NCBI GenBank assembly: GCA_050173015.1 | Contig: JBFXLE010000005.1 | Location: forward strand, 172,120-236,119 | From: Calditrichaceae bacterium | GTDB lineage: Bacteria > Calditrichota > Calditrichia > Calditrichales > JBFXGD01 | Direction: 5' to 3' | DNA length: 64,000 bases | Part shown: positions 36,788 through 54,138 of the stretch, one piece after another | How the letters are laid out: each line of letters opens with the position of its first letter | How positions within the stretch are numbered: position 1 is the first letter of the stretch | Made by a program: the position numbers and the translations under genes | Notes under the pieces: generated by a model | Told to the model about the DNA's origin: nothing | Database searches by the model: none | The model's input: only the letters and a program-made list of their open reading frames with translations

Positions 36788-36818
36788 TAGCCGCCTTCTT
36801 GCTCTCAAATTTTATGTT

Positions 36819-39800
36819 TTAATCTGTTCTTAACAACCGTTTAAACCAAAGAATGGAAATCACCGCCAATGCCAGCGATGAAAGAACAGCGCCCGGGATC
36901 GCTTCGGGAACAGCATTAAACACCCCCTGTTTGACTGAACCGAGAATCATCAATGACCCGCTCATCAATGGAATGAGCGCCGGTTGAAAACGGAATACGG
37001 TAATATACATGATAATAAAATATATACCTGAAATTATTCCCAGGGTCATCCAAAGGTTGAGATTGTCAATGGCAAATCCGCTGTAAATAAAGCCGAATAA
37101 GAAAAGCGCCAGGAGAGTAAGGATTTTTCTGCCGGACCATCCGTCAGAGAATTTATCAAGGGCGGTGAATACCAGCAAGAGCAGGGCGGTTTCGATAATA
37201 TACCCGGCGATGGGCTGTAATGCCGCACCAAGAAGTGGGATTGAACCGGCGATCGTTTTATATTCCGCCCAGACCGGCTTGAGGACCGGACCGGTTAATG
37301 ATCCCGCGGATGTTAGTAATCCCGCGAAAAGCAGCCCGATGGAGGCTCCAGCTAAAATCATGGTGAAGCTACCGCGGGCTTTTTGGGCTCGTTTCCATTT
37401 TTGCGTGAATCCGCCGATAAAGGCGGGGCCGGCCGCGAGAAGCAGGATCAAAATAACAGGCATAACGAGCGCGAGAATCATCTGATTGAAATACGGTTCG
37501 GATGTCGAAAATTTAGCGACAGAACAATTCCATTCATTGATGATGTCAATAATCCCGATTCCAAGCAGAAAAGTGAGAATCCATAAAAAAACAGAGGGAG
37601 AAAATTTCTTTCTGCTCCAGGCAACGATAGCGCCGATTATACCGGCGAGGAAAATCAACACGGCAGACATGATGACGAGACCCCTGATGAGTCTTGAAAG
37701 ATTCGTTCTGTTTATTTCATCGCGTTCCCAGTCTTCCTTGACATATATATAACGATAACTGTCAGTCACCTCTTTGCCCGAAATGAGAACCGCGATCCGG
37801 GCCTCCCCGTTTTCGGTCGAATAAACCATCGTGTCCGCGAAAGTAATCGTCCAGTCAAGACGATTTTCAAGCCGTGAAGGTTCTACAGAGATCACTTTCA
37901 GGACTGAGGGGTCCATCCGGTGCAGATTGACGATTACAGAATCGGCTATTTTTTTTGCCTGTTCTTCTTCAAGAATCGCGCCGGTTCTTGCCTCGGGCAG
38001 GATATGGCGGAAACGGATATTGTTTTCATCCTGAATCAATATCTGATATTCCTCGGCTCTATCCGCCACATCACCTTCAAAACGGATATAACGAATCTTC
38101 CAGTATGGCGGTGACAGGTAGTTGCCGATCAATCCGGCGTAGCTCTCAGACCCTTCTGTCTGCCAGATCATCCGGTCATCCGCGCCGTTGGGGGATTCAA
38201 TACAGCTCAGCATCCTCCATTCTTTGGGTAACTGAATATTTCTTTCCTTCATAATTGTATCGGCAATTCGAATCGCCTCAGTTTTTTGAATATCCAAACG
38301 TGGCGCTTCGTTTTTGAAATTGGCGGTGAAAATCCAAAGAACAAGCCCGGCAATTCCGGCAAATATTAGGAAGTAATTGATGTTTTTTCCCTGTGAAACT
38401 TCCTCTTTTTGGGGAGTCGGCACCGGTTTTTCTTTCAACGGATCCGGTTCCCATGATCCGTTAAGCTGTTCATCCCTTATTGTTGTCCATTTTTTGGATC
38501 TTAAGCGGGCAAACAGGATTACCCACAGCGGAACCAGCACGAGAATGAAAACCATCAGGCGGTCGGCCCAGATTCCGGGAGCGGTCGAAACAAATAAAGG
38601 AAGGGCGAACCAAACAACATCCACAGCGTAATGCAGAATAATACCCGGAAGCAACCCGAAGTACAGATAAACAAGACCGAAACCGATAGAAGGGATAATC
38701 AGTTCCACTAGTCTGGCGTACGCCGGCTGCTGCGGATAATTGGCGTGAGCCGCCCCAAAAATCACCGCCTGGAGAATAAACGCGGCGAATATCCAGGCTT
38801 TTCTGTGCCCGTATTTTTGACCGATCAGAGCGGCCCCGGCGATGGGAATCGCCCGGAACAGACATTCTTCCATAAAACCGGCCTGAAAAGAAATGGTTAT
38901 GGATGACAGCCAGGGAAAATATGAGGCCAGTATATCGGGCTCAAATAAAGCCTCGGATGGCGACCACCAGCCAAGATACCGCGAGGCAAAAAAGTATAAC
39001 CCGATATCGAAGGCAAAGAACAATCCAACCGCCAGATACCCGCCGAATGTCTGTCCCCAAACAACCGGCGAGCTTGCCGTGTCTTTTGACCAAATATTCC
39101 AGAACCGCAGATGGTTAGGAAAGGCTTTTCTTGTGAGACTTTCCGCCGCCATAAATGAAAGCGTAAAAAAGATTGTCAGTCCGATAAATGACACGAGCAA
39201 ACCGACAATCTGCTGCATTACAAACCCTTGCGCGGAGAGGGCCGTGTCATATCTCATCCATGACAGCGGCCATCGGTTCAAAGAGTTTAATATTTGCAGC
39301 AGCGCGACAAAGATCCCCCAGAACAGAGGTTTTCGCCAGATAATCCATCTTTGCCGGATGAGAAAAAACAATCCGATGATCATACCGCCCAAAAAGTAAA
39401 AAATGATCATTCCCACCAACGCGCCCGCGGAGATGGTTTCATTTGATGAACGCATTTCACTGTATCGTCTGGAGAAGGCTTCGGGTATTTTCACAAAATG
39501 CGTTAATTCGGTAAACTTATCACCCGATACGACCAGGCGCATGCGATAGTGGGCGTCACCGGTTTTAATATCGGCGCGTTCATATACAAAGGTATGATCA
39601 ACACGGCCGCCGGGGCGGACTTCCTTCGACGTTTCCACAAGATTATATACACTCAGATCAGTTTTTAGGAACAGCCGCGCGTTTTGTTCGGCGATCACCC
39701 GGGCGGAGTCCGGTATTAATGCCGCGCCCGGCGCCTTCTCCGAAAGCGTTTCGACAAAACCGTATGGTTCGCCTCCCGGTGTGAAGCGGATTTCCGTTTC

Positions 39801-40139
39801 ATTTACTTCCGATTCTCTGTAATGACGAACATGCCATGTGTAAGGATAGTAGATTTTCTCCTCAAGGACGGCGCTGAATGCTTCCGCTCCCCCCGCTTCA
39901 AGCTCCACATAATTCTGAAATTTGTTGTCCAGGTCAAACGAAGCCGCCTGATCAAAATCAGTGGGTCCGAGATTTAGGATTCCGGAAAACTGTTCCGCGG
40001 CGCTCAGTGCCGTCTGCCTGTCCATCTGCAGATCCAGATTAACAAGCGGATAGGCCATAGGGAAAAACCGGTAGGTAAATATGGCGCCTGCAATGGAAAA
40101 AATAGTAAGAATGATCCAGAAAGCGGGTTTTCTAAACAT
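36819..40139 (-). CDS. Large CPBP (CAAX/Abi) family intramembrane metalloprotease
   Basis: EECLFR, FGAAH and H…D (LHYAVD) motifs; many TM segments; two related soluble domains. Confidence 0.8.
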   Translation of the reverse strand: MFRKPAFWIILTIFSIAGAIFTYRFFPMAYPLVNLDLQMDRQTALSAAEQFSGILNLGPTDFDQAASFDLDNKFQNYVELEAGGAEAFSAVLEEKIYYPYTWHVRHYRESEVNETEIRFTPGGEPYGFVETLSEKAPGAALIPDSARVIAEQNARLFLKTDLSVYNLVETSKEVRPGGRVDHTFVYERADIKTGDAHYRMRLVVSGDKFTELTHFVKIPEAFSRRYSEMRSSNETISAGALVGMIIFYFLGGMIIGLFFLIRQRWIIWRKPLFWGIFVALLQILNSLNRWPLSWMRYDTALSAQGFVMQQIVGLLVSFIGLTIFFTLSFMAAESLTRKAFPNHLRFWNIWSKDTASSPVVWGQTFGGYLAVGLFFAFDIGLYFFASRYLGWWSPSEALFEPDILASYFPWLSSITISFQAGFMEECLFRAIPIAGAALIGQKYGHRKAWIFAAFILQAVIFGAAHANYPQQPAYARLVELIIPSIGFGLVYLYFGLLPGIILHYAVDVVWFALPLFVSTAPGIWADRLMVFILVLVPLWVILFARLRSKKWTTIRDEQLNGSWEPDPLKEKPVPTPQKEEVSQGKNINYFLIFAGIAGLVLWIFTANFKNEAPRLDIQKTEAIRIADTIMKERNIQLPKEWRMLSCIESPNGADDRMIWQTEGSESYAGLIGNYLSPPYWKIRYIRFEGDVADRAEEYQILIQDENNIRFRHILPEARTGAILEEEQAKKIADSVIVNLHRMDPSVLKVISVEPSRLENRLDWTITFADTMVYSTENGEARIAVLISGKEVTDSYRYIYVKEDWERDEINRTNLSRLIRGLVIMSAVLIFLAGIIGAIVAWSRKKFSPSVFLWILTFLLGIGIIDIINEWNCSVAKFSTSEPYFNQMILALVMPVILILLLAAGPAFIGGFTQKWKRAQKARGSFTMILAGASIGLLFAGLLTSAGSLTGPVLKPVWAEYKTIAGSIPLLGAALQPIAGYIIETALLLLVFTALDKFSDGWSGRKILTLLALFLFGFIYSGFAIDNLNLWMTLGIISGIYFIIMYITVFRFQPALIPLMSGSLMILGSVKQGVFNAVPEAIPGAVLSSLALAVISILWFKRLLRTD

Positions 40140-40438
40140 CTCATCCCCCAATTTTTTTTGAGAATGGATTTAAATATGATGAAGATTCGCCGGACTAAAT
40201 GAACGGTTGTGTGAAAATATAAGCACGGGAGGCGTTCATAGGAAATATTAATAAATTAATTAATTCGGAAGGTTTGGCCGGATCGCGACCAATTATTAAT
40301 TATGATGAGACCTAAGATTATTCAACGGGCTTTGAAGCCGTAATCAGGAATTGAATATTATAAATCTTGTAATGAATAAAAGTGTATGATATTTTACAAA
40401 AGCTGAATAATTGAGACAGCTTTTGGTAAGGTTAGACT

Positions 40439-41788
40439 ATGAAAAACACAATTTCATGCCGCCAGAATGCATGGTATGGAGACAATGAGATTTCTTACCG
40501 GTTCCCCGACAACTGGAAAATTACCGTATTTTCCCCTCAAGACAGGGCAAAGCTGAGTGATGATGAAATTTATACAAAGATACAAAATCCCCTGGGCTGT
40601 TTTCCCCTGATCAAACAATTGAAGCCGGGTATGAAAGTATTAATTATCAGCGATGATATAACCAGACCCACCCGTACAGATGTCATCATTCCGATTCTTC
40701 TCAATATCCTGAAAAACGCCGGTATTCATTCCACTCATGTTTCTATATTGATCGGAACGGGCCTTCATTCGCTTATGGGTGATCATGAGAAGATGCTTAA
40801 ATTCGGCAAAGCAATAGTTGATAATTTTAAAATATATGACCACGATTATCGCGGAAAAAACATTTACGCGGGAAAAACAAGACAGGGGACACCGGTTTTT
40901 ATAAACAGACATGTTATGGAAAGCGATTTTATAATCGGTGTTGGCGGGATTTATCCTCATAATCCGGCCGGATTCGGAGGAGGAGCCAAGCTGATCCTGG
41001 GTGTCAGCGGGGAGAAAACAATCAAATATTTTCATCTGAGAAGAAAAGGCGTGGACGCCGGCGGAGCAGTTTCAAATGAATTCAGACAGGATCTGCTTGA
41101 AGCTTCAAGGTTGGCGGGAATGAATTTTATCATCAATAACCTGGTTGATAAAAACAGAAATATAATCGATATCTTTGCCGGAGATGTTGATTCGGCTTAT
41201 CATGCGGGTGTGGAAAAAGCGATGGATATTTTCGGTGTTCCGAGTCCCGCCGATCAATCGTTTGATTTAGTGGTGGCTGACGCCTATCCCTTTGACAGTA
41301 CATTTGCCTTTACCCGAAAAGGATGGTGGCCTATCCGTCAATGCGGGAGAAAAAGCTACAAACTTATTATTTCTTCTATCCCTAATGGAATAGGGAATCA
41401 TCCGCTATTTCCGACGGTTCCGGTCCGATACCCAAAGATAATTGACGCGTATAATCAATACCTGACCTCCGGAATCAAAGATTTTATCTTCAACTACTCC
41501 GTAAAATCCATTTACCGGGGAGGCCGAAACTTTGCGTCAGAAGGATTTCATAAGGTTAAGAATATGATTCGTCCGTCCGCGAAGGAAGCTCCGGCAGCCC
41601 GGAATCAGCCTCTGCCGGCGACACTGCTTCATGGTTTGGATAAAAATTTCTCAAATCAACCGTTACCGTATTCTCTGCGCTCAACAAATAATCTTAAGGA
41701 ATTCACAGATCATTTGATATCCCAAACCGGCGACAGGGAATTAAAAGTGGGATTTTATCAAGCATCGTCTCTGACTTTTCCTGGATAG
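40439..41788 (+). CDS. LarA-family (nickel-pincer dependent racemase/epimerase, DUF2088) protein
   Basis: DITRPT, GTGLH, GTPV.IN, PH..AGFGGG.K motifs. Confidence 0.8.
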   Translation: MKNTISCRQNAWYGDNEISYRFPDNWKITVFSPQDRAKLSDDEIYTKIQNPLGCFPLIKQLKPGMKVLIISDDITRPTRTDVIIPILLNILKNAGIHSTHVSILIGTGLHSLMGDHEKMLKFGKAIVDNFKIYDHDYRGKNIYAGKTRQGTPVFINRHVMESDFIIGVGGIYPHNPAGFGGGAKLILGVSGEKTIKYFHLRRKGVDAGGAVSNEFRQDLLEASRLAGMNFIINNLVDKNRNIIDIFAGDVDSAYHAGVEKAMDIFGVPSPADQSFDLVVADAYPFDSTFAFTRKGWWPIRQCGRKSYKLIISSIPNGIGNHPLFPTVPVRYPKIIDAYNQYLTSGIKDFIFNYSVKSIYRGGRNFASEGFHKVKNMIRPSAKEAPAARNQPLPATLLHGLDKNFSNQPLPYSLRSTNNLKEFTDHLISQTGDRELKVGFYQASSLTFPG

Positions 41789-42079
41789 CGCGATGGTTAT
41801 TTCGGGACCGGGAACTACATTTTTTTTATAAAAACAGCACTTCTATAAAGGCTTTTTGTCATAAGCGCGTCAGCCGTTTCTTTGATGTGTAAGTTATGAT
41901 CGGCTCATACCTATGTTTTGATTGGCTGAACCGTATGTTATAATCGGTTCATGCGTAGCAGACGATGGTGTTATCCGTTTAGGCCACAACGGTTATTTGA
42001 AATATTGACGCGGGATTACACGTTTATTGAAGATGTCGGCCATATCCGCGCCGGATTAAGTGATACTCAGGATGTAATT

Positions 42080-42352
42080 ATGATCATGTTTTACAGGCAT
42101 AAAAACTGTTCCGAATGCGACGATATTCAGGACCGGCTCGATGAGCTGGTCATTGCATACGAGTCCGTCATACCGGGGGCGGAAGAGCGGCCGGAAATTC
42201 AAAACCTGCCTGTTTTAAAAGATGACGGTAAAAATTTTACCGGGATACAATCGATTTCTAAGCATATTGATGAATTAACGTCCTTTAAAGAGATTTGGGA
42301 TAAATTTCAGGGCGATTCATGTTATTGCAATGACCGGGGCGAGGTCGAATAA
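42080..42352 (+). CDS. Small glutaredoxin-like protein
   Basis: CSEC motif near the N-terminus, LPVL cis-Pro motif, C-terminal FQGDSCYC. The ORF extension upstream of 42080 looks non-coding. Confidence 0.6.
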   Translation: MIMFYRHKNCSECDDIQDRLDELVIAYESVIPGAEERPEIQNLPVLKDDGKNFTGIQSISKHIDELTSFKEIWDKFQGDSCYCNDRGEVE

Positions 42353-42554
42353 TCCTGCTTTTTCATCATTTCTCATGTGATTTTTAAACAAAACCTTACG
42401 TTCATCGTGTTTCAGTATCTGCGTATCTCAGAAAATTGGATTAATCAGGGAGTAACGCGATGCACGGCAGAAGAATTTATATCTTCATATTTGTGTAATA
42501 ATATATTAATTTAATCATAGCAAAGGCCAGTTTCACATAAGCTTGGGATCATTT

Positions 42555-45488
42555 ATGAAATCAAAAGTCCTCATTCCTCTTCTGCTTCTTTTTCAGTTTC
42601 TGTTTTTAGTTTTCAGTGTCAATCTTTTTTCGCAGTCAATTGAATCTGCCGAAATTACCGGATTAATACAGTCATTTAAAAAAGACGAACGCGGCCCCTA
42701 TCAGGCGATCCGTTGGTTTTGTCCGGATGGCACCATCATTCCGCCCAAGGAAAGGTGTCCGGAGCCCGGCGGTATTCAGCACGCTCTTCATAAAGATATT
42801 GTCACGCGAATCGCGAAAAATAACGGGATATACCTGGGACAGATTCTTGCCGGAGCGAAGTTTGAAGATGTCTTGGATGAACTGAACCGGAACTCCAGAT
42901 TAAAACAATATATGATGGAGAGATATCTTCAGCGCTCCGATGACGGCTGGATTTTTCGCAGAGCGCGTTATTACCGGGGCGCCATCCAGGTAGAAGATGA
43001 AGAATATTGGGGAGTGAATTTTCTAAAATGGCTCGTCTCCAGGGAAGATATTATTGATAAGCAATTCTATTTGTTGCGTCAGGCCGCAAAGGATATTCCG
43101 CATAAGGCCAATGATAATCACTGGAATAATATCCGGGATCTCTCCAAAACGCTTGGCGATTCACTGCCGTCATTTATGGATTTGCGGGTGAAATTACACG
43201 GTCAGCCGGATATGGGAGATCTGGAACGGGTAAGAAATTTCAAAACACGAAACAAAAACAAAATTCCGGTGATGATGGATGAATTGCTGCAGAATCTGGA
43301 AAAGGAACTGGAACTGGCATTCAAACCGACTGATCTTCAGACACTCAGCGCATACGTTGAAAAATTACCATCATCTAATATTCTATCCGTACGTACTAAA
43401 AAACTAATCACTGCTTACGGAAGAAAGAGCAGTCAGAATACGCCGGACAACCGAATAAAGGACATTGCTTCCCTACTGTGGGAGATCAGAGCCAATCTTC
43501 TTTCTGTGTCAAAGCCGGATCAACGTCTGGCCATCATCGATCTTTCAAACGAGCTCGAAACGATCCTTTTCAGCGAAATTCGTTTATGGAAGCCGGAAAC
43601 CATCGGCGGGCTGCTTGAGAAAAATTATTATCTTACAAAAGCGGCGGCAGGATGCGGATTTCTTGAAAAATGGGAATGGGAACAGATTGAGCAACTCCTA
43701 TCGGTGTCCGGAAACGCTGAAGATATGAGTCTGGATGATTTCAGAAAAAAAAGCGAAACTTCAAGGCGAGCCGTCGAATGGAGCGCGGGAATGGTACGGG
43801 CTAATTTTGAACCGGTCGTTTCATTGTTCGATGCATTCGAGCCGCTTGCAAAAGGTTTTACGGATGACCGCATTCGCGGCTCTGTGCTTCTTCCTCTTGG
43901 AGAAGTCGCGGGCGATTTGTCAGACCGGTTGTCTGTCTTTGCAGGTCAGAGCAACAATGTAATGGGGATAAGTAATCAGAATAAAATTACCGGTCTTAAT
44001 CCGGGATTTGCTTTTGGGAAGCTGGAAGTTGTTCCCGGGGCGCCGGATGACATTCAGTTCGCGGCGGATAAAATTTATATACTGATGCGACCGCCCGCGG
44101 ATATGAAACCGGTAGCGGGAATTGCTACTGTTTCAGAAGGAAATCTGGTCTCGCATGTGCAGCTGCTGGCGCGGAATCTTGGAATTCCGAACGCGGTCTT
44201 GTCGGATCAGAATTTGGCCGATTTATCCGCTTATTCGGGGAAAGACGTGTTTTATGCGGTTTCACCGGGCGGCAGCGTGTTAATGAAACCGGCTGAAAAA
44301 ATGACGGATAGGGAAAAAGCTCTTATTCAGATTAAAAAGAGGAAAGAAGAAAGAATTAAAGTTCCAACAGGGAAAATCAATTTAAATCAGACCGATATTA
44401 TAAGTCTGCGTAAGCTCAGGGCATCCGATTCGGGAAAGATCTGCGGCCCTAAAGCGGCAAATCTTGGTCAGTTGAAAAGTATGTTCCCGCGGCAGGTGGT
44501 AGAGGGTCTGGTGATTCCATTCGGAATTTTCCGTCAGCACATGGATCAATTCATGCCGGGTAGTGAATTAACTTACTGGCAGTATTTACAGGAAACGTTT
44601 GAGAATGCATCCGGTGAGAATAAAACGGGAATGACAAATGACCAAATAGATTCAATGGTATTAAAGCGTCTCGAAGTTCTTCGTGAAGCGATCAGGAAAA
44701 TTAAATTTTCACAGGAGTTTTTACTAAAGATGAAAGCCGGATTCACGGATGTTCTTGGCAGGGACATGGGCGGAGTACCGGTCTTTATCCGCAGTGACAC
44801 CAATATGGAAGATTTAAAGGATTTTACGGGCGCGGGATTGAATCTGACGGTATTTAATGTGGTTGACGAAGAAAAAATTTTACAGGCAATCCGCGACGTA
44901 TGGGCTTCTCCGTTCACGGAACGGAGTTATAAATGGAGACAAAAATTTCTGCTTAATCCGGAAAATGTATATCCGTCTATTCTTATTATTCCCACCGTGG
45001 ATGTTGAAAAATCGGGGGTGATGATAACGACCGGTGTCACCTCCGGGAATCCGGAGGATGTTACCATCGCGTTCAACCGCGGAGCCGGCGGGGCGGTGGA
45101 GGGTCAGGCGGCCGAATCGTATCTTCTGAGAAACGATGGCTCAAATCAACTATTGTCTCCTTCGCGAGAAACTCTCAGCACAACGCTCCCGGCAACGGGC
45201 GGAACGGCAAAAGCAATCATGCCTTTGAACAAACCGGTGCTGGATAACAATGAACTAAGCATGCTTCGCGCTTTTGCCGGTGAGATCAAAAAGAAACTCC
45301 CGGGGACTCCCGGAATTGAATCAAAAGGGCCGTTTGATGTGGAGTTGGGATTTAAAGACGGGCAAATCTGGTTGTTTCAGGTACGGCCATTTGTGGAAAA
45401 TAAAAACGCGCGATCTTCAGAGTATCTCCAGAAAATGGATCCGAAGATAAAAGATATCCGGATATCGCTAACCGATACTCTGAATTAG
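42555..45488 (+). CDS. Exported PEP-utilising/dikinase-family protein (phospho-His swivel domain followed by C-terminal ATP-grasp PPDK_N domain)
   Basis: Signal peptide MKSKVLIPLLLLFQFLFLVFSVNLFS-Q; EGNLVSHVQLLARNLGIP His motif; GPKAANLG, RSDTNMED…FTGAG, ELGF…LFQVRP. Confidence 0.85.
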   Translation: MKSKVLIPLLLLFQFLFLVFSVNLFSQSIESAEITGLIQSFKKDERGPYQAIRWFCPDGTIIPPKERCPEPGGIQHALHKDIVTRIAKNNGIYLGQILAGAKFEDVLDELNRNSRLKQYMMERYLQRSDDGWIFRRARYYRGAIQVEDEEYWGVNFLKWLVSREDIIDKQFYLLRQAAKDIPHKANDNHWNNIRDLSKTLGDSLPSFMDLRVKLHGQPDMGDLERVRNFKTRNKNKIPVMMDELLQNLEKELELAFKPTDLQTLSAYVEKLPSSNILSVRTKKLITAYGRKSSQNTPDNRIKDIASLLWEIRANLLSVSKPDQRLAIIDLSNELETILFSEIRLWKPETIGGLLEKNYYLTKAAAGCGFLEKWEWEQIEQLLSVSGNAEDMSLDDFRKKSETSRRAVEWSAGMVRANFEPVVSLFDAFEPLAKGFTDDRIRGSVLLPLGEVAGDLSDRLSVFAGQSNNVMGISNQNKITGLNPGFAFGKLEVVPGAPDDIQFAADKIYILMRPPADMKPVAGIATVSEGNLVSHVQLLARNLGIPNAVLSDQNLADLSAYSGKDVFYAVSPGGSVLMKPAEKMTDREKALIQIKKRKEERIKVPTGKINLNQTDIISLRKLRASDSGKICGPKAANLGQLKSMFPRQVVEGLVIPFGIFRQHMDQFMPGSELTYWQYLQETFENASGENKTGMTNDQIDSMVLKRLEVLREAIRKIKFSQEFLLKMKAGFTDVLGRDMGGVPVFIRSDTNMEDLKDFTGAGLNLTVFNVVDEEKILQAIRDVWASPFTERSYKWRQKFLLNPENVYPSILIIPTVDVEKSGVMITTGVTSGNPEDVTIAFNRGAGGAVEGQAAESYLLRNDGSNQLLSPSRETLSTTLPATGGTAKAIMPLNKPVLDNNELSMLRAFAGEIKKKLPGTPGIESKGPFDVELGFKDGQIWLFQVRPFVENKNARSSEYLQKMDPKIKDIRISLTDTLN

Positions 45489-45522
45489 TGGTTTGTTTAA
45501 TATTTGGGGAGAAACAGATCCA

Positions 45523-46770
45523 ATGAAAATAAAAATAGCGGCGTTACTTTTTTTTATGATCCTTTTTGACGGTCTTTCGGGTTACCCGATCGACGGATAT
45601 CAATGGACAGGAATAAGACGCTTATTGAGATTAAGCCTGATGAGCGAGGGACAGATTAAAGGTACTTTGCCCCCACCCGGAGGCAGGAAGCCTTACTCGG
45701 AAATCGCTTTGAATCTTTTAAACGCGAAAGGTGACAGTCTTGATACGCTTCCGAAGGTAGATCAGGAATTACAGAAACGGATTGACGCGCTGTTCCCGAA
45801 TCGCGATGAAAGTTATTCACTGGCGCTTCTTGAAATCACCCCGGGTAAGCCGATGCGCTTTGCCAAACGACAGGCGGAAAACAGATTCGCTCCCGGAAGT
45901 GTGGGAAAGCTGGCCATTTTAGCCGGACTGTTTACCGAATTACAAAAAATCTACCCGGATTCACCCGAAAAAAGAAAGGAACTGCTGCGCGCCCGAATGG
46001 TCGTCGCGGATAAATGGATTCTCACAGATCATCATGAAGTACCATTTTTTAATCCGGAAACGAAGGCGGCATCCTGGAGACCGATAAAAGAAGGGGATAC
46101 ATTTTCTCTGTATGAATGGGTAGATCACATGATCTCAGCCAGCGCGAATTCAGCGGCAAGCGTTGTCTGGAAAGAAGTTCTATTGATGAGAGCATTCGGG
46201 AAAAATTACCCGGCGAGTCCGGAGTGGGAAAAACATTTTTTTGAAAAAACAACAAAAAGTGAACTCAGTGCCATAGCCATGTCAACGGTTAATGACCCGC
46301 TCAGGGCGATGGGGATTGAGCAGAATGAATGGCAGCTTGGCAGTTTTTTTACGCAAACAGGCAAAAAACTGGTTCCGGGCGGTAGTGGAAGCTACGGGAC
46401 TCCCACGGCTTTGCTAAAATATCTTATCGCTTTGGAACGGGGAAAGATAGTGGATGAATGGTCAAGCCTGGAGATTAAAAGAATGATGTATATGACCGCG
46501 AAACGAATCCGCTATGCGTCAAGCCCGGCGTTAGCAGACGCGGCGGTCTATTTTAAATCGGGAAGCCAGTACCGCTGCAAAGTGGAACCTGATTTCAAGT
46601 GCGGTAAATATATGGGAAATGTTGAAAACTATATGAATTCGGTTGCCATTGTCGAGCATCCGGCCGGTCGTGTCTATCTTGTGGCGCTTATGTCAAATGT
46701 TTTAAAGAAAAACTCAGCGGTGGAACATCAGTCGCTGGCCACATTTATCGACAGGATCATTTCAAAATAA
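45523..46770 (+). CDS. Exported serine hydrolase, class A beta-lactamase/PBP fold
   Basis: SVGK (SxxK), SAN (SxN), KSG; signal peptide. Confidence 0.8.
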   Translation: MKIKIAALLFFMILFDGLSGYPIDGYQWTGIRRLLRLSLMSEGQIKGTLPPPGGRKPYSEIALNLLNAKGDSLDTLPKVDQELQKRIDALFPNRDESYSLALLEITPGKPMRFAKRQAENRFAPGSVGKLAILAGLFTELQKIYPDSPEKRKELLRARMVVADKWILTDHHEVPFFNPETKAASWRPIKEGDTFSLYEWVDHMISASANSAASVVWKEVLLMRAFGKNYPASPEWEKHFFEKTTKSELSAIAMSTVNDPLRAMGIEQNEWQLGSFFTQTGKKLVPGGSGSYGTPTALLKYLIALERGKIVDEWSSLEIKRMMYMTAKRIRYASSPALADAAVYFKSGSQYRCKVEPDFKCGKYMGNVENYMNSVAIVEHPAGRVYLVALMSNVLKKNSAVEHQSLATFIDRIISK

Positions 46771-46780
46771 ATGTGTTGTT

Positions 46781-49666
46781 TTAGCGGTCGACACCAATAT
46801 GCTTCAGCGCGAAACCGGCCATTTTTCTGACTTTGGGATCCGGACTGTTCACCAATGATCCAATATAAGGAAGATATTTCTCATCTTTTAATTGACTGAC
46901 AAGATACAAGGTACGGATTTGCAGTGTCGTGTCTTCGCTTGAAAGAAGCGTTGTAAGGCATTCGTGCTCAGACTTGATTTTTAATCCAAACTGCTCAAGC
47001 GTTTTATCGATAACAGAACTGATCATTGTCGTTTCAACGATCGGTATGATGATCTTTTTCAAATCGCTCTCCAGGACATTATCCAAAAACTCAACCGCGT
47101 TGACACGGACATCCGGTTTGCTGCTGCTGATTCCACTGTACACATTCTCTATATCTTCAGGCGGATATTTTAATCCAAGCAGCCGGAATATTCTTTCCAG
47201 ATTGTTGTCCAGGCGATCCTCTAAAGCCTTGATCAGCATATTTCTGGCTTCATGCAGTTTGGTTTGATTGGGATCAGATAAGTTCCCGGCACCGGAAATC
47301 GTCTCGGCTCGCACCTGTGAATAAAGAAACGCGAGAGTGTTAACATAATCGTTGGCTTCCGCGAAAATTCGGTTGGCGAGGTTGGGGACATGGAAATTCA
47401 GCGCGGGGGAATTCAGTCTCAGGTCGTATAAAGCATTGATGACTTCATAGCGGACGAGCGCGTCTTTTAACTGTAAATTTTTTACAAGAACATCTACCGC
47501 TTTTTGGTTGCGGAAATTGGCGATCAGAGCGGGAATACTCAATCGAATATTTCTCTCAACATACGGATTGTTTAAATGTTCATTCAAAACATCAAGTATT
47601 TCCGGCCCAAACGCAAGGAGTGCTTCGTAGGTGTATTTCCATAATCTTTTCTTTTTTTGCATACGGATCAGAACGGGGATAAAGTCCATATTCTTGCTGG
47701 ATCCGGCGGCTAATATCGCTGCTTTTAAAACGTCAGGATCGCTATCGCTCAATAAAATATGCAGATAGGGGTACAATTCGGGAATATCCGCCGCGCCAAT
47801 GACCCTGGATGCCAGAGTTTTTAAAGATTTTGTATGGGATTTGTTTGTCTGAAGCCGCAAATCTTTCATCAATTCGTTTACCGATTCTTTCACTCTGAAT
47901 TGCTGCTTTAATTCGGGATTATTACGGCTCTCCCTTGCCGCGCACAGAAGGGCGGCGCTGCGAACGGTAATATCGGGAGACTGCAGGAATGAAGACAGCT
48001 TTTCAATTCTTTGTCCGCCGGCCCTCTGAAACAGATAATGTATGGCCTCAGTTTTTATCTCTAAATCCGGGTCTTGGATAAGATTTTCGACTTCTGCGGA
48101 AAGATCCACATGTTTATAAAAATAGATATTTCTAAGTACTTCAAGTTTTATTTCTCCGGAAGAATGGTTCAGAAGTTTCTGAAAGCATGGAAGAAGACGG
48201 TCGTTTTGAATTGGCTTCACCATTTTAAGAACCTGGAGAATCTGAGATTCATTTTTTCCTTCAAGGATTTTGATGAATCCGCCAAATACAGACTCGTTTT
48301 GAATGTCGGGCAAATCTGAATTTGAGTTTATCTTATTGGATTCAATCTTTAAGCGGAAAGAATTGACATACTCTTTTCTAATCCTGGTGACAAGATATAT
48401 CCATAGAGAAAGCAATAAAATGATAATAAGACTGATCTGCCTGATGGAGAAGTCGAATCCGTACGTTAAAAAAATCAGAAGCAATCCGCCAATTCCTGTC
48501 GCGAAGCTATCTACAAAAACATCGATAAACGATTTTGCCTGATTTTTAATTTCCACCGGAATAGGCAGGGCGAGCAGTTCGATTCCGGCCTTGTTGATGG
48601 AGTTTTTAAGACTGCCGTCCGTTATTTTGATAAAAACTCCCGCCCACAGCACGGGAGTGATAAAGATGGTTACCGCGCCGATAAGAATTCCAACCGGCAG
48701 AAACAATAAAGAAGTACCCACTCCAAAAACGCCCACAACCCGGCGCGTGACAAACAGCTGAATCAGAAGAGAAGCGATATTCAGATTGGAAAGCCAGAAT
48801 CCGAAGAAGGCGGTTAACTGATCCTCATTGGTGATTTCTCTGGCAGCGATGGCTCCAAACTGATACTCAATAAGTTTGGCGACCAACACACCGGTTCCAA
48901 CGATGCTGGCCAGATAAATAAGATGCTTTGACTGCCGGATTATACGGACCGGATGGACCGCCGTCACGGATACCGGATGCGCCCGGTATAATTTACGGTG
49001 TTCGGCGTTCCTAAAATAATCCTTCCATAAATTATTTGTGATTGGTATGCACAATAATAAAAAACCGATACAAATAAAGATCAGATTTTCACTGCTGATG
49101 ACAGGGGCAAGAAAATTGGTGAGATACCCGCCGAAAATCCCTCCGGCGATGGCGCCGGATCCTATGAATCCGAATAAGCGTTTCGCCTCACGGGCGTTAA
49201 ATATCACATTCGCGAGTATCCAGAACTGAGAACTCGAGATGACGGCAAATATGGCGACAAACACATAAAAAATGTATATGATCCAGCCGGGCAGCAAATT
49301 TAACTGCAGAAACGACCAGAACATAAATAAAAAAGCAATTGAAATTTTTAGTGTTTTTACAATTAAACGGTGCACAGGCGCTTTTTTAAGCAGTTCTGAA
49401 TAAAGAGATGATATTCCGGCCGCAAACACGGCAACCAATATAAATACAAAGGGAAGCTGTTCAACGCCGAACCTGGTAAGGAACATTGAAATAACCACAG
49501 GTTTTACAATGAGCAGAGACGAGATGATCAGAAAAATATAAATCCACATCATCAGGGCTCGTCTTCCCTCCCCGTGTCTTATATCAAAGGTCTCGTTAAG
49601 AATTTTTTCAACGATGTCAATGAATTTTACCCCGGCAACGCTGGAACCGCTGTTTGTGCTCACCAT
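46781..49666 (-). CDS. NTT/TLC (Npt1/Npt2-like) nucleotide transporter fused to HEAT repeats
   Basis: About 12 TM N-terminal domain with QFWILANVIFNAREAKRLFG and KSFIDVFV motifs; helical HEAT-like C-terminal half (DPDLEIK, DPDVLK, DALVR, DPKVR). Confidence 0.85.
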   Translation of the reverse strand: MVSTNSGSSVAGVKFIDIVEKILNETFDIRHGEGRRALMMWIYIFLIISSLLIVKPVVISMFLTRFGVEQLPFVFILVAVFAAGISSLYSELLKKAPVHRLIVKTLKISIAFLFMFWSFLQLNLLPGWIIYIFYVFVAIFAVISSSQFWILANVIFNAREAKRLFGFIGSGAIAGGIFGGYLTNFLAPVISSENLIFICIGFLLLCIPITNNLWKDYFRNAEHRKLYRAHPVSVTAVHPVRIIRQSKHLIYLASIVGTGVLVAKLIEYQFGAIAAREITNEDQLTAFFGFWLSNLNIASLLIQLFVTRRVVGVFGVGTSLLFLPVGILIGAVTIFITPVLWAGVFIKITDGSLKNSINKAGIELLALPIPVEIKNQAKSFIDVFVDSFATGIGGLLLIFLTYGFDFSIRQISLIIILLLSLWIYLVTRIRKEYVNSFRLKIESNKINSNSDLPDIQNESVFGGFIKILEGKNESQILQVLKMVKPIQNDRLLPCFQKLLNHSSGEIKLEVLRNIYFYKHVDLSAEVENLIQDPDLEIKTEAIHYLFQRAGGQRIEKLSSFLQSPDITVRSAALLCAARESRNNPELKQQFRVKESVNELMKDLRLQTNKSHTKSLKTLASRVIGAADIPELYPYLHILLSDSDPDVLKAAILAAGSSKNMDFIPVLIRMQKKKRLWKYTYEALLAFGPEILDVLNEHLNNPYVERNIRLSIPALIANFRNQKAVDVLVKNLQLKDALVRYEVINALYDLRLNSPALNFHVPNLANRIFAEANDYVNTLAFLYSQVRAETISGAGNLSDPNQTKLHEARNMLIKALEDRLDNNLERIFRLLGLKYPPEDIENVYSGISSSKPDVRVNAVEFLDNVLESDLKKIIIPIVETTMISSVIDKTLEQFGLKIKSEHECLTTLLSSEDTTLQIRTLYLVSQLKDEKYLPYIGSLVNSPDPKVRKMAGFALKHIGVDR

Positions 49667-49687
49667 AAATCCTGTTTTTTTATAAGG

Positions 49688-50605
49688 TTAGACTTTTTTA
49701 CCGGTTTTTAAAACCTTCTCCGCCGTCAACAACAAATCTCTAAGAATCGCCTCTCCGTGAGGATCTTCGACAAGTCCCACCAGTATATAACGCCGCCATT
49801 CCGGACCCCAGACCATTACAGAATCTGAATGCCAGTTCCGCCAGGTGCCTGATTTTCTGTATATCTTGGCATCCGGAACGACTTCGTCCAGACTATGCAC
49901 AAATTTATGATGAAGTTCAGGATCCGAAAGAAAATCCAGCATTTGGGCTGAGCGATCCCGGCTAACCAGTTTTCCGAACGCCAGTAAATAATAATAGCGG
50001 CAAACCTGTGTGGCGGTAGCGCCGTGACTTAGACCCATTAAAGGATCAGGATAGCGTTTTCCCAATTTCGCGTAACGTTTGCCAACCCACAATCCTCCCC
50101 CCAATTCCGGCGCGTATAACTGATACTCTGGATTCATAAGGACAGCCTGGATTTTTTTAAATCCGACCCGGTCAATCATTCTCGTTGCCGCCGAATTATC
50201 TGATTTACTGATCATGATACGCATATCTTGCAATACTTCAGGTGACTCTTCAAGCGTACCATCTTCAAGCGACTGCGATGCGCCCAACAGGATTGCCAGT
50301 TTTGGTAAACTTGCCGCATACATCATCAGATCGCCGTTAACTCTGGCAAACCTTACATGATGCGGGTCGCTGATGTCAACGAGGCCGACCGACATTTTCT
50401 TTTTATCGATCAGTCTGGCCCAGGTTTTATCTTTACGAAGCTGTTTTTCCAATTCAGCCTGAAAATCATTGTCAACCAGTTTCCTTAAAGGTTTGATTTC
50501 CTTGTCAGCGATAGAATAAGGGAGTGGTTCGTCTTTGTTGGTCTGAGTGAAGCCATGAGGAATGAACACCAAAAATGCAGTAATCAAAAGATAGAGTATT
50601 TTCAT
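49688..50605 (-). CDS. Exported serine hydrolase, class A beta-lactamase/PBP fold
   Basis: AASLPK (SxxK), SDN, KSG; signal peptide. Confidence 0.85.
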   Translation of the reverse strand: MKILYLLITAFLVFIPHGFTQTNKDEPLPYSIADKEIKPLRKLVDNDFQAELEKQLRKDKTWARLIDKKKMSVGLVDISDPHHVRFARVNGDLMMYAASLPKLAILLGASQSLEDGTLEESPEVLQDMRIMISKSDNSAATRMIDRVGFKKIQAVLMNPEYQLYAPELGGGLWVGKRYAKLGKRYPDPLMGLSHGATATQVCRYYYLLAFGKLVSRDRSAQMLDFLSDPELHHKFVHSLDEVVPDAKIYRKSGTWRNWHSDSVMVWGPEWRRYILVGLVEDPHGEAILRDLLLTAEKVLKTGKKV

Positions 50606-50919
50606 AAATGTAATCCTTAAAAAATGTTGTAATCACCCCGGATCACGCCGATTAATTCGAGAATTAAACGAGACTGAAATATGTTAGTTCACGGAAATAA
50701 CCGGAAATAATACAAATTCATAAAATATATTTGAATAAACAAGATATTTTTAAACGCCGGTTATATTGGTCATAAAACAATATTTATTCCTGGTCAAAAT
50801 GATTGAAATGTGATAATTTTATTTTTTGTTTTGAGAACTACGATTTATCTTATATCATAATAGAGTGTATTTAATATATTTGGATAAACTCAGGTCAGGC
50901 CGAAACTCTGGGGTGCGCC

Positions 50920-53900
50920 ATGTTTAAAAACAACAACATCAAACGAATCTTTATGACTGGCGCTACCGCGGCGCTGGTGCTTATGTCCGTTTCGATAGGT
51001 TTTTTCTGGATAACGGCCGAATTCCGTCAGTTTGAACAACAGTCGGAAGAGCTGGAAAAAACATACATTGAATCGCAAAAAAAAATGGTAAAGGATCAGG
51101 TCGAAAATGTCATTAACTATATTCATTATAACCGGGCGATCTACGAAAAAAACCTTCAGGATGATTTAAAACAGCGTGTTTATCAGGCGCATGCCATAGC
51201 CTCCAATATTTACAACCAATATAAAGATCGGTATCCGGAAGCAGATTTAAAAAAAATGATCCTTGACGCTCTTAGGCCTGCCCGTTTTAACAACGGCCGG
51301 AGTTATTTTATTGTGACGGATCTTTACGGCATATCTCAGTTATATCCCCCGGAACCGTCAGTTGAAGGCACCAGCCTGGGAGAATGGGTTGATGCAGACG
51401 GGAAATATGTAACCAAAGAAATTATCGCGCTCTTAAAAAAGGAAGGAGAAACGTATCGAAAATATTTCTGGCACCGCCAGGATGAAAACTCTGAAAAGAC
51501 ATATCCTAAGATAGGGTTTGTAAAAATCTTTAAGCCATTCAACTGGTTTATCGGCACCGGAGAATTTCTTGATAATGTCGAGAATGATATAAAGAAAGAA
51601 GTTCTGGAGCGAATATCCAGAATTAGTTATGATGAAAACGGTTATGTCTTTGTGAACACCTTTGATGGGATCGCTCTGATTATTGACTCAGAAAAATACA
51701 AAGCCGGCGATAATGTCTGGGAATTGACGGATCCTAATGGTGTAAAAGTTGTACAGTTAGAGAGAAAAGCGGCCGAAAATCCTGAAGGAGGATTTATCCA
51801 TTACTCCTGGGTAAAACCGTCAACCAGCCAATATTCACCAAAAATATCATTTATTAAAGCGGTAAATGACTGGAAATGGATGATAGGCGCCGGTGTATAT
51901 CTTGATGACATAAATAGCGTTATATCGGCGCACAAACATCAGTTGAAGATGGGAGTGATGCAGCACATCATCAGCATTTTGCTGCTCTTTTTATTTGTAC
52001 TTACACTAACCATTCTTTTATCAAATTATTACTCGGAAAAAATTAAAGATGAATTCGATATATTTACATCTTTCTTTAAGGAGGCGGCGCACAAGCATAA
52101 GAAGATCACTGAAGGAAAGCTGAAACTCAATGAATTTAAAGTACTTGCGGAATCGGCGAATTATATGGTTGGGGAAAGGGAGAAAATCGAAAATGAACTT
52201 GTGATAAATAAGCAGAGAATGGACGATTTAATTTCGAGTGTTAATGGTTTTCTTTGGAGCGCGAATGTAGATAAAAATAAAAATATCAATCATACTATTT
52301 ATACGGAAAGTATTTACAGAATAACGGGGTACAAATCAGAAGAATTTTTAAATGTATCTAAAAATCTCTGGGTATCTATTATACATCCTGATGATTCTGA
52401 ATTTGTAAAGGCGTCAATCAATTCCCTTCTGAATAGTCAGGCGGCTCACGGAGAATACCGTATTATAAGAAAAGATGGTAAAATTCGCTGGCTTTATGAA
52501 ACAGCGGAACCGCTTTTGGATGAGAATGGCAGAACCTGCCAAATAAACGGTGTGTGCGTGGATATAACCGATCGCATAAAGGCGGAAGAAGATCTGGAGG
52601 CGGAAAAAGAACGATTGGCCGTGACATTGAGAAGTATCGGTGATGCCGTAATAACCACTGATACACATGGTAATATTGTAATGCTGAATAAGGTAGCGGA
52701 GGAGCTGACCGGCTGGACGCAATCCGAAGCTCATGGAAAACCCCTGAACAAGGTATTCAGAATTATCGATGAAAAAACAAAAAAGCCGGCAGAAAATCCG
52801 GTTAAAAAAGTCATGAAATCGGGAACGATTGTAGGATTGGCAAGCTCTACACTGTTAATTTCTAAGGACGGGACGGAGAGAATTATTGCCGACAGCGGCG
52901 CGCCGATCAGAGATAAGGGCAGCAAAATACTTGGTATAGTATTGGTTTTCAGAGACATTACTGAGCATCGGAAGCTTGAAAACGAAGTCTTAAAGAATAG
53001 AAAACTTGAATCGGTTGGATTGCTCGCGGGGGGGATAGCTCATGACTTTAATAATCTGCTGACAGCGATTCTTGGAAATATATCACTTGCAAAATTGAAT
53101 CTTAAGCCCGGAGAGCGAACGTTTGACCGGCTCGAAGACGCCGAAAAAGCGACCATGAGGGCAAAAGATCTGACCCAACAACTATTAACTTTTTCACGCG
53201 GAGGAGCGCCGGTCAAAAAATTATCGGATGTGGGAATACTCATAAGGGAGACGTCTGAGTTTGCGTTGAGAGGATCCAATGTAAAATCAAAAATATCAAT
53301 CCCGGAGAATCTATGGTCGATCGAAGTTGATGAAGGGCAGTTAAGTCAGGTCATAAATAATCTCGTTATAAACGCCGATCAGGCGATGCCGGAAGGCGGT
53401 ACTCTTGAAATAATTGCGGATAATTTGAATGCCAAGGGAGAAAAAAACAGTCTGCTTAAAAAAGGAAAGTATATAAGGCTGGTCATACGAGATCAGGGAA
53501 TTGGGATCCCGATGAACCATCTGGATAAAATATTTGATCCCTATTTTACAACAAAACAGCATGGAAACGGATTGGGGCTTGCCACAACGCATTCGATAAT
53601 AAAAAATCATCAGGGATATATTACAGTCAAGTCAGAGCTTGGAAATGGAACGGAATTTATCATTTATCTTCCAGCTATCTCAAAAACTAAAAAAGCGGGT
53701 CTTTCCGGAGCTAAAAAAATAACCGGAGGCAGCGGAAACATTCTGGTTATGGATGACGATGACCTTATATTGAAGGCCTGCGCTAATATGTTAAAAAGTT
53801 TAGGATATAAAGTCGTTTTAGCTCCTGACGGCGGTGAAGCAATCGAAAAATATACACTGGCCCGGAGTTCAGGTGAACCGTTTGACCTGATCATGATGGA

Positions 53901-54138
53901 TTTAACTGTTCCGGGCGGCATGGGCGGTAAGGAAACAATTCGGAAAATGAAAGAAATTGAACCGGGGCTGAAAGCGATTGTCATGAGCGGATATTCAAAT
54001 GATCCGGTGATGGCAAATTATGAGGAATATGGTTTTATGGGTGTAATAACCAAGCCTTTCAATATTGAAGAGCTGGCCGCGACGGTCGGCAGGGTTATTT
54101 CAGACGGGCATGAGGAAAAGAAACAAATAAACGATTAA
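50920..54138 (+). CDS. Hybrid sensor histidine kinase (Cache x2, PAS x2, HisKA, HATPase, receiver)
   Basis: Two TM segments flank tandem Cache domains; PAS (IHPDD, SIGDAVI); H-box AHDFNNLL; G-boxes; receiver DDD…D…KPF. Confidence 0.93.
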   Translation: MFKNNNIKRIFMTGATAALVLMSVSIGFFWITAEFRQFEQQSEELEKTYIESQKKMVKDQVENVINYIHYNRAIYEKNLQDDLKQRVYQAHAIASNIYNQYKDRYPEADLKKMILDALRPARFNNGRSYFIVTDLYGISQLYPPEPSVEGTSLGEWVDADGKYVTKEIIALLKKEGETYRKYFWHRQDENSEKTYPKIGFVKIFKPFNWFIGTGEFLDNVENDIKKEVLERISRISYDENGYVFVNTFDGIALIIDSEKYKAGDNVWELTDPNGVKVVQLERKAAENPEGGFIHYSWVKPSTSQYSPKISFIKAVNDWKWMIGAGVYLDDINSVISAHKHQLKMGVMQHIISILLLFLFVLTLTILLSNYYSEKIKDEFDIFTSFFKEAAHKHKKITEGKLKLNEFKVLAESANYMVGEREKIENELVINKQRMDDLISSVNGFLWSANVDKNKNINHTIYTESIYRITGYKSEEFLNVSKNLWVSIIHPDDSEFVKASINSLLNSQAAHGEYRIIRKDGKIRWLYETAEPLLDENGRTCQINGVCVDITDRIKAEEDLEAEKERLAVTLRSIGDAVITTDTHGNIVMLNKVAEELTGWTQSEAHGKPLNKVFRIIDEKTKKPAENPVKKVMKSGTIVGLASSTLLISKDGTERIIADSGAPIRDKGSKILGIVLVFRDITEHRKLENEVLKNRKLESVGLLAGGIAHDFNNLLTAILGNISLAKLNLKPGERTFDRLEDAEKATMRAKDLTQQLLTFSRGGAPVKKLSDVGILIRETSEFALRGSNVKSKISIPENLWSIEVDEGQLSQVINNLVINADQAMPEGGTLEIIADNLNAKGEKNSLLKKGKYIRLVIRDQGIGIPMNHLDKIFDPYFTTKQHGNGLGLATTHSIIKNHQGYITVKSELGNGTEFIIYLPAISKTKKAGLSGAKKITGGSGNILVMDDDDLILKACANMLKSLGYKVVLAPDGGEAIEKYTLARSSGEPFDLIMMDLTVPGGMGGKETIRKMKEIEPGLKAIVMSGYSNDPVMANYEEYGFMGVITKPFNIEELAATVGRVISDGHEEKKQIND

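Follow-up and report, generated by a model that had tools for sequence, protein, structure and literature searches.

A conserved four-gene module that may supply nucleotide to a predicted exported dikinase in Calditrichaceae and other bacteria

The periplasm is usually taken to have no ATP, and the machines of the bacterial envelope are built around that limit. A stretch of 64,000 nucleotides from a Calditrichaceae bacterium (GenBank assembly GCA_050173015.1, contig JBFXLE010000005.1, positions 172,120 to 236,119 of the forward strand; hereafter the window, with its own numbering) raises the question of whether some bacteria feed nucleotide into this compartment. It encodes a putative exported "X, water dikinase"-type enzyme, a carrier of the NTT/TLC type (the ATP/ADP translocase family) joined to HEAT repeats, and two serine enzymes with predicted export leaders. 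An export-signalled ATP-grasp/His-swivel enzyme next to an ATP/ADP-translocase-family carrier challenges the textbook view of an ATP-free periplasm. The set suggests, without proving, that bacteria feed nucleotide into the periplasm.

We labelled the dikinase DIK, the two serine enzymes HYD1 and HYD2, and the carrier-HEAT protein TRH. DIK lies at 42555..45488 on the + strand and encodes 977 amino acids (aa) from its ATG, and HYD1 follows on the same strand (45523..46770, 415 aa). TRH (46781..49666, with the ATG start of the open reading frame (ORF) listing) and HYD2 (49688..50605, 305 aa) are on the − strand. HYD1 and HYD2 are Beta-lactamase2 family enzymes. With ATG starts, the genes form two convergent pairs over 42555-50605 with intergenic gaps of 34, 10 and 21 bp, as the original prediction had described them, and the ORF listing and the translations bore this out. 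The longest ORFs begin at TTG codons 12 and 30 bases upstream of the ATGs, the TTG of DIK being at 42543. The start at 42555 is favoured for DIK because a same-genus relative has a stop codon directly upstream of the dikinase ATG. DIK residues below are numbered from the TTG at 42543.

The four genes are best explained as one self-contained envelope module, judging from their neighbourhoods in other genomes. Scanned by pattern, a collection with a single genome for each species returned at least 599 stretches, at least 593 of them encoding a DIK relative, and the best 80 loci were analysed. By title, these 80 came from Calditrichia, KSB1, Bacteroidota (Flavobacteriaceae, Saprospiraceae, Cytophagales, Bacteroidales), Desulfobacterales and Rhodothermia. 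Where at least 7 kb followed DIK (55 loci), HYD1, TRH and HYD2 were all present in 49. Of 51 four-gene loci, which come from several phyla, 50 keep the gene order of the window; the median intergenic gaps are 2, 7 and 65.5 bp. ORF clustering over the 80 loci gave only four recurrent families, in 79, 68, 56 and 51 loci, and the next family was found in 6.

We examined ten genomes with a DIK locus that had no TRH beside it. In seven of them a full-length TRH match of 770 bits or more lay elsewhere in the genome, one had a 407-bit full-length match together with a 427-aa membrane-only form, one had only a 477-aa membrane-only form, and one, of completeness not given, had none. Unlinked TRH genes adjoined HYD2 or HYD1, and the membrane-only carriers adjoined HYD2 and HYD1.

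Among 151 Flavobacteriaceae genomes, which are related to one another and not independent, DIK was found in 34 and TRH above 900 bits in 33, all within the DIK set. In the sole DIK-positive genome without a full-length TRH, DIK is truncated by the end of its contig. Among the DIK-negative genomes, three had only weak TLC-like frames of 427-441 aa (75-95 bits). One genome of this family had two full-length TRH genes (1188 and 984 bits, on contigs C29 and C40 of G090) and one DIK match. In cultivable Flavobacteriaceae, the question of periplasmic nucleotide supply becomes directly testable; by locus title, cultivable bacteria with the module include Formosa algae KMM 3553, Olleya namhaensis DSM 28881 and Aquimarina muelleri DSM 19832.

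A search of 41 genomes of the window's own group for DIK, TRH and HYD1 found full-length copies of the three only in G000 and in the same-genus G001. The other DIK matches in the 41 genomes were weak ATP-grasp matches to ordinary PEP-synthase-like paralogues (PEP, phosphoenolpyruvate) and two fragments in G040, a genome of the window's class. Both fragments, on contigs C71 and C164, belong to the DIK N-terminal region; one has 64% identity over 101 residues and the other 82% over 34, and one of the two lies close to the end of its contig. TRH and HYD1 had no match in G040. The fragments may be a remnant or reflect an assembly gap.

In DIK, Pfam detected PPDK_N alone, at residues 634-960 (E 3.2e-26); it found no PEP/pyruvate-binding barrel domain in DIK, and no CBM45 or CBM20 matched upstream of residue 634 at E≤0.01. 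An AF2 model built from 62 sequences (mean pLDDT 86.5, pTM 0.83) gave the layout of the protein. The leader MKSKVLIPLLLLFQFLFLVFSVNLFS, followed by Q, is a probable Sec signal peptide of the signal peptidase I type (42555..42632, + strand, as for all DIK domains) and appears as an N-terminal helix at model residues 7-29. Next comes a Cys beta-hairpin module (42699..42791; model residues 53-83, with strands at 53-59 and 78-83) that carries C60 and C72 in RWFCPDG...ERCP. An all-alpha domain, with 20 helices in the model and presumed to bind the acceptor, occupies residues 85-470 (42795..43952). It is followed by the phosphohistidine swivel domain (residues 471-600; 43953..44342) and the C-terminal ATP-grasp nucleotide-binding domain (residues 615-955; 44385..45407).

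The catalytic His538 (codon 44154-44156) sits in EGNLVSHVQLLARNLGIPNA and is invariant among aligned homologues, as are the ATP-grasp motifs GPK637AANL, R750SDTNMED and D932-x-E934...Q946-x-R948. These motifs presumably match K22, R92, D321/E323, Q335/R337 and T453-S-H455 of PPDK; the titles "K22A", "R337A" and "T453A" of PDB entries among the fold matches of DIK agree with this presumed correspondence. A PPDK_N-type ATP-grasp domain and a phosphohistidine domain with the conserved His are thus both present in DIK, which, to judge from these motifs, keeps the intact catalytic apparatus of an ATP-dependent His-swivel dikinase. The PPDK/PEP-synthase-type build that had been proposed for it was not found: PPDK_N is C-terminal, the His domain lies upstream of it and the PEP barrel is missing. 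NCBIfam gave weak matches to PEP synthase, rifampin phosphotransferase and prodigiosin ligases, all far under the cut-offs; the PEP synthase models scored at most 85.6 bits against cut-offs of at least 598.

At E≤0.001, a search with DIK recovered 848 homologues, and the 120 best of them were 867-1011 aa long. Identity across phyla was 50-62% over about 980 residues. For the all-alpha domain (residues 85-470), no convincing known fold was found by VIA-align and Foldseek with the whole DIK model, and its ESM Atlas scores of 0.84 and 0.76 were under the lead threshold of 0.9. When this domain alone was searched against 1.84 billion representatives, 502 proteins matched at E≤0.001. In the best 150, most of them about 930-1040 aa long, the domain was always at the start of the match, behind a leader-sized stretch where the N-terminus was complete; in full-length relatives it began about 25-50 residues in. 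The alpha domain is thus restricted to the DIK family.

The closest parallel in layout is the plant glucan, water dikinase GWD1. In potato StGWD1, a 20-helix central domain (aa 483-926) precedes a His domain (931-1050) and an ATP domain (1069-1387), as described for it in PMC13553574. DIK has the same order: an all-alpha domain, a His domain after a short linker, and a C-terminal ATP domain related to those of PPDK and rifampin phosphotransferase. The same mechanism would be expected, with the beta-phosphate passing to His and then to the acceptor. Plant and algal GWD1 and phosphoglucan, water dikinase work in plastids fed by an NTT ATP/ADP translocator, and DIK too is associated with an NTT-family carrier. 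Unlike GWD, DIK has no CBM45 or CBM20, and it has a predicted signal peptide and the Cys-hairpin module. As a bacterial and apparently extracytoplasmic enzyme, it would need a carrier that exports and does not import. The alpha domains are likened by layout only, as the GWD central-domain entries 9HA9 and 9QVI were not among the matches in structure searches with the whole DIK model.

The acceptor domains of LmRPH, PEP synthase and HpeI (dikinases of the phenol/hydroxyacetophenone type) were unrelated to that of DIK in the searches made. RPH and PEP synthase have the ATP-grasp domain first, so that the order in DIK is permuted, and the NCBIfam scores of DIK are under the cut-off of every family. 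RPH, PEP synthase and HpeI-type dikinases are cytoplasmic. A periplasmic DIK would add a new acceptor class to the water-dikinase superfamily.

The search with the alpha domain also recovered full-length DIK relatives at 30-36% identity, here called clade B, which keep the His, ATP-grasp and Cys invariants. A metagenome scan found 574 relatives among 600 stretches, and 80 loci were analysed. The recurrent families were DIK (76 loci), HYD1 (46), HYD2 (39) and a carrier (31), with the next family in 8. This carrier lacks HEAT repeats and has a median length of 434 aa; all eight tested passed Pfam TLC, with 25.9-68.1 bits against a cut-off of 21. Flanks of 6 kb or more were available at 28 loci; all three partners were present at 19 of these, and 13 of the 19 had the usual order DIK> HYD1> <HYD2 TLC>. 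No fifth recurrent gene was found by ORF clustering in the 80 loci of either clade.

These neighbourhoods indicate that the association of the dikinase with a TLC carrier and two SxxK enzymes survives deep divergence, changed gene order, and loss or gain of HEAT. The co-occurrence test proposed with the original prediction thus gave a strongly positive result: DIK is linked to TLC/NTT and two Beta-lactamase2 genes in two deep clades and co-inherited with them genome-wide. As clade B has the same module with HEAT-less carriers, the HEAT domain is probably accessory. Three clade-B loci (L163, L165 and L143) have tandem TLC genes, one of about 426-438 aa and one of 711-857 aa with a longer tail; the tail of the longer gene at L163 gave a weak HEAT_2 match. 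Such pairs may be intermediate between HEAT-less and HEAT-fused carriers.

Do DIK and the two serine enzymes leave the cytoplasm? We applied a crude heuristic for leaders, in which a hydrophobic 10-mer with a mean Kyte-Doolittle hydropathy of at least 2.0 had to be preceded by K or R. The pattern was present in 72 of 79 DIK, 69 of 70 HYD1 and 49 of 50 HYD2 homologues, and in 74 of 74 clade-B DIK; most homologues without it look like errors in the choice of start codon. Lipobox-like leaders were seen in 9 of 50 HYD2. DIK, HYD1 and HYD2 each have one hydrophobic 19-mer, which is N-terminal and behind K/R residues. A small residue and Q follow the hydrophobic core in 71 of 77 DIK and 40 of 49 HYD2, the Q-rule pattern described for signal peptidase I substrates of Bacteroidetes in PMC5837995 and PMC10653852. 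In HYD1, YPxDG stands directly behind the leader (median position 22 in 72 sequences) and probably marks a conserved mature N-terminus.

The Cys pairs that had been noticed in DIK (FCPDG...ERCP) and HYD1 (RCK...KCG) are present and invariant in homologues: C60/C72 in 62 of 62 DIK and C352/C360 in 51 of 51 HYD1. In all 74 clade-B DIK, two or more Cys stand no further than 40 aa from the RGP motif. Invariant pairs of this kind fit an oxidising compartment. The sequences strongly support Sec-type leaders on DIK, HYD1 and HYD2, which would then work outside the cytoplasm. Of the signal peptides originally predicted for them, the N-terminal leaders stood, by the hydropathy rule and conservation; their cleavage, and residence of the three proteins in the periplasm, would follow from the pattern of the leaders.

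TRH has two parts. Its membrane half (residues 1-446; 48329..49666, − strand) is a 12-helix NTT/TLC-type carrier of the major facilitator superfamily (MFS), and its C-terminal HEAT-repeat domain (residues 460-961; 46784..48289, − strand) is presumably cytoplasmic, given the even number of helices and the NTT/MFS fold. In the window TRH, Pfam detected HEAT repeats only (HEAT_2 E 6.2e-27, 94.1 bits; HEAT 48.3 bits), and TLC (PF03219) had no match even at E≤10. TLC matched 38 of 52 TRH orthologues (best E 8.6e-14), and HEAT_2 was present in 52 of 52. A profile of the whole TRH gave only HEAT alignments in the PDB, and a separate alignment of the membrane half was therefore used; at E≤0.001 its profile matched only AtNTT1 (1e-14) and CpNTT1 of C. 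pneumoniae (2.1e-13). The AF2 model (pLDDT 81.2) showed 12 long helices at residues 34-446 and all-helical HEAT repeats at 460-961. Its top three Foldseek matches were the NTT1 structures 9j3n, 9j3l and 9j3m, with TMt of 0.68-0.71 (C. pneumoniae NTT1 9j3n, 0.68; AtNTT1 9j3l, 0.71). The NTT identity first given to the carrier thus stands through orthologues, profiles and fold, and not through a Pfam TLC match of the window copy.

A complex prediction with TRH 1-450 and DIK 470-981 scored 0.00 against a mark of 0.32, which is evidence neither way. A single in-frame stop (TAA or TGA) was seen in three TRH orthologues (L058:14069-16987 on the − strand, G106 and G066), which could be pseudogenes or contain sequencing errors; L058 was left out of the TRH alignment for this reason.

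We put at roughly one in two the probability that DIK acts in the periplasm as an "X, water dikinase" and that a dedicated carrier supplies its nucleotide. This carrier would bring adenine nucleotide out of the cytoplasm to the periplasmic side of the membrane; an exchanger facing an ATP-free periplasm would run outward. The beta-phosphate would pass from ATP to His538 of DIK, leaving AMP and Pi, and the His domain would then swing to the alpha domain and phosphorylate a periplasmic acceptor. This acceptor may also be a substrate of the two SxxK enzymes, either before it is phosphorylated or afterwards, and the cytoplasmic HEAT domain of the window carrier would be accessory, perhaps regulatory. 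The idea of ATP export and periplasmic phosphorylation put forward at the outset is thus upheld as to gene association, leaders and catalytic motifs, while ATP transport by the carrier, its direction and the acceptor are suppositions.

The GWD-like build of DIK and its all-alpha domain suggest a polymer or glycan as acceptor. The SxxK partners suggest that this substrate contains a D-aminoacyl/peptide or ester part, with cell-wall material as the most plausible candidate. A long shot, and the most provocative version, is that the phosphorylated envelope glycan is the sugar backbone of peptidoglycan, with the two PBP-like enzymes remodelling the peptide, in what would be the first dedicated periplasmic ATP economy. 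If this peptidoglycan version were true, the module would be a system for covalent cell-wall phosphorylation.

Several points weigh against a carrier-fuelled periplasmic dikinase. Free ATP could leak through the porins of the outer membrane. The leader heuristic is unspecific: of the 34 ORFs in the window that have 250 aa or more, 23 pass it, all membrane proteins included, and 11 fail. Any substrate named for DIK is a guess, because its acceptor domain has no recognisable fold. A weak point is the return of AMP: a water dikinase releases AMP and Pi, and characterised NTTs exchange ATP against ADP (plus Pi), according to PMC3306366, so that a return path for AMP is unaccounted for. Neither a periplasmic adenylate kinase nor any fifth gene travels with the module in the 80 loci per clade.

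The residues of the carrier count against it as well. In AtNTT1, the charged residues K155, E245, E385 and K527 are reported to be important by mutagenesis, K155 being linked with the binding of ADP and K527 with that of ATP, and K527E binds no ATP (PMC4256464, PMC3306366). We mapped these positions with a HMMER alignment of the TRH membrane-half profile; a shift of 84 between the chain index and the AtNTT1 precursor fits all four. In 40 of 40 carriers of the window clade, the K155 position, in a weakly aligned stretch, is F or Y, the E245 position is A, S or T, the E385 position is D or E, and the K527 position is T or S. In clade B, the K155 position has no aligned Lys, whereas the other three are D, E or D, and K, respectively, each in 23 of 23. 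Carriers of the window clade are therefore without three of the four charged residues and keep only the E385 equivalent. With T or S in place of K527, ATP binding cannot work as in AtNTT1, according to this mapping. This lowers confidence that the window carrier binds ATP in the manner of NTT1, and the family assignment stands. Other charged residues are invariant in the 40 window-clade carriers: K55, R159, R163, D350, K354, E363, K374, K378, D382 and D386. The differences between the two carrier clades make a ready-made structure-function test.

It is unlikely, though with some weight, that the module is exported and its NTT-type carrier moves another solute, such as the phosphorylated product, the acceptor, AMP or adenosine for salvage, or another nucleotide cofactor, with the donor of DIK arriving by another route or not being ATP. 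The K155, E245 and K527 equivalents, each found in 0 of 40 window-clade carriers, agree with this, as does the failure of the window TRH in Pfam TLC. The substrate range of NTTs is described as unpredictable from primary sequence (PMC4256464), and titles cited in PMC5381601 indicate that some members of the family carry NAD or SAM. However, the ATP-grasp motifs of DIK are invariant, so a nucleotide would be needed in a compartment with no known supply. Moreover, the clade-B carriers keep the K527 equivalent (23 of 23) with the same partner set, and no other candidate for donor supply recurs in either clade.

The two serine enzymes bear on a different explanation. Both matched Pfam Beta-lactamase2 (PF13354), HYD1 with E 1.9e-7 and 31.1 bits and HYD2 with E 2.6e-16 and 60.1 bits, against a cut-off of 22. 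The motifs S126VGK129, S207AN209 and K345SG of HYD1 were invariant in 51 homologues, and S99LPK102, S135DN137 and K251SG of HYD2 in 43. By hhalign, HYD1 and HYD2 matched each other with a probability of 82% (E 1e-5) and with their motifs aligned, and from these sequences we take them to be distant paralogues. They share the family and the SxxK/SxN/KSG motifs with class A beta-lactamases and enzymes of the PBP-A type, e.g. Tll2115 of Thermosynechococcus. HYD1 differs from these enzymes by an N-terminal extension of about 100 aa, an insertion between SxxK and SxN and a Cys pair of its own. Both are very distant from the solved class A and PBP-A enzymes: a single-sequence PDB search gave no match for either, the HYD1 profile had no match in the PDB, the sole match of the HYD2 profile was Tll2115 (E 0.008, 20 residues), and ESM Atlas returned for HYD1 only its own Beta-lactamase2 family. 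HYD1 and HYD2 may act as DD-peptidases, esterases or lactamases.

Membership in Beta-lactamase2, together with a rifampin phosphotransferase among the weak NCBIfam matches of DIK, could point to inactivation of antibiotics or xenobiotics, with an RPH-like dikinase phosphorylating a periplasmic toxin and the two beta-lactamase-fold enzymes hydrolysing it or related compounds. As this concerns the substrate, it would be compatible with nucleotide export. We consider it doubtful. RIF_Ptrans_rph scored 56.8 bits against a cut-off of 999, the domain order of DIK is unlike that of RPH and its acceptor domain has no match to RPH's. The identity of 50-62% across phyla and the fixed four-gene set look like a housekeeping envelope function, and no mobile-element genes were recurrent beside the module in the 80 loci of either clade.

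Very unlikely, in our view, are cytoplasmic catalytic domains in DIK, with the N-terminal stretch serving as an inverted anchor or a buried helix and the link to the carrier reflecting cytoplasmic nucleotide handling, e.g. via HEAT. The lack of specificity of the leader rule leaves room for this, and a HEAT domain in the cytoplasm could dock a cytoplasmic partner. Against it, the K/R residues before the hydrophobic core and the acidic or neutral stretch after it have the orientation of an export signal, leader ends of DIK are of the Q-rule type (71 of 77), and an invariant Cys pair comes directly behind its leader. Both co-transcribed partners have leaders as well, lipobox-like in 9 of 50 HYD2, and the carriers of clade B have no HEAT domain for docking.

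Hardly credible is a reversed direction, in which DIK would make ATP from AMP and Pi with a periplasmic high-energy phospho-compound and the carrier would import it, since water dikinases spend two phosphoanhydride bonds and a donor of PEP-like energy would be needed, DIK has no PEP/pyruvate-binding barrel, and the role of the SxxK enzymes would be unexplained; in favour of it are the import of ATP by characterised NTTs (PMC5381601) and the reports that some dikinases of the superfamily run backwards in some organisms (PPDK, PMC5371819).

A periplasmic dikinase fuelled by its own carrier would also bear on a family already described. Fusions of NTT with C-terminal HEAT repeats (PF13646/PF02985) are widespread in free-living bacteria, monophyletic and uncharacterised according to Major, Embley and Williams (2017, PMC5381601). 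The available text of that paper proposes roles in ATP uptake or exchange and does not mention dikinase or beta-lactamase-fold neighbours. TRH has exactly the NTT-HEAT architecture, a likeness of domain build and not a placement in the published tree, and the sister clade of the module differs in its HEAT-less TLC carriers. The module would offer the first functional context for the free-living NTT-HEAT family, uncharacterised since 2017 by the account in PMC5381601.

Neither an exported bacterial dikinase nor the four-gene set was described in any paper that our literature search, which did not cover supplementary files, brought up. New here are clade B with its HEAT-less TLC carriers, the family-wide presence and absence of the genes, and the comparison of NTT residues. 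Among known envelope and organelle systems, peptidoglycan O-acetylation by PatA/PatB, D-alanylation by DltB/DltD and import of ATP into the endoplasmic reticulum by AXER/SLC35B1 follow a similar plan, in which a membrane protein supplies the donor and an enzyme on the far side modifies the target. These are analogies only, with other protein families and donors, and to our knowledge none of them has a His-swivel dikinase or an NTT carrier.

The genes that flank the module in the window do not share its conservation. A LarA-like gene, a 133-aa ORF and a dCache-PAS hybrid histidine kinase recur only at the same-genus locus L011, with 70-87% identity. The LarA-like protein is encoded upstream of the module (40439-41788, +; Lar_N E 6.3e-48, with a weak DUF362), and its gene adjoins DIK only in L011. 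The hybrid kinase (50920-54138, +), with dCache_2, two PAS, HisKA, HATPase_c and a receiver domain, is divergent from HYD2 with a gap of 314 bp and lies beside the module elsewhere only in L011 (87% identity); outside L011 it gave weak partial matches of 21-35% identity. A regulatory link between kinase and module is thus unsupported by conservation.

A scan of 42000-51200 found 20 promoter and 11 terminator sites, where 16.6 and 10.3 were expected, with nothing above chance. PADLOC gave only a generic HEAT match and no defence-system model, and a reading as a defence system was dropped for this reason. Further upstream, on the − strand, a 1110-aa protein with about 17 hydrophobic segments (36819-40151) has a central Rce1-like CAAX-protease domain (E 9.3e-10); the next gene of that strand, directly downstream, is a 931-aa ORF with an N-terminal leader (34013-36808). 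The two form a pair of large, uncharacterised proteins.

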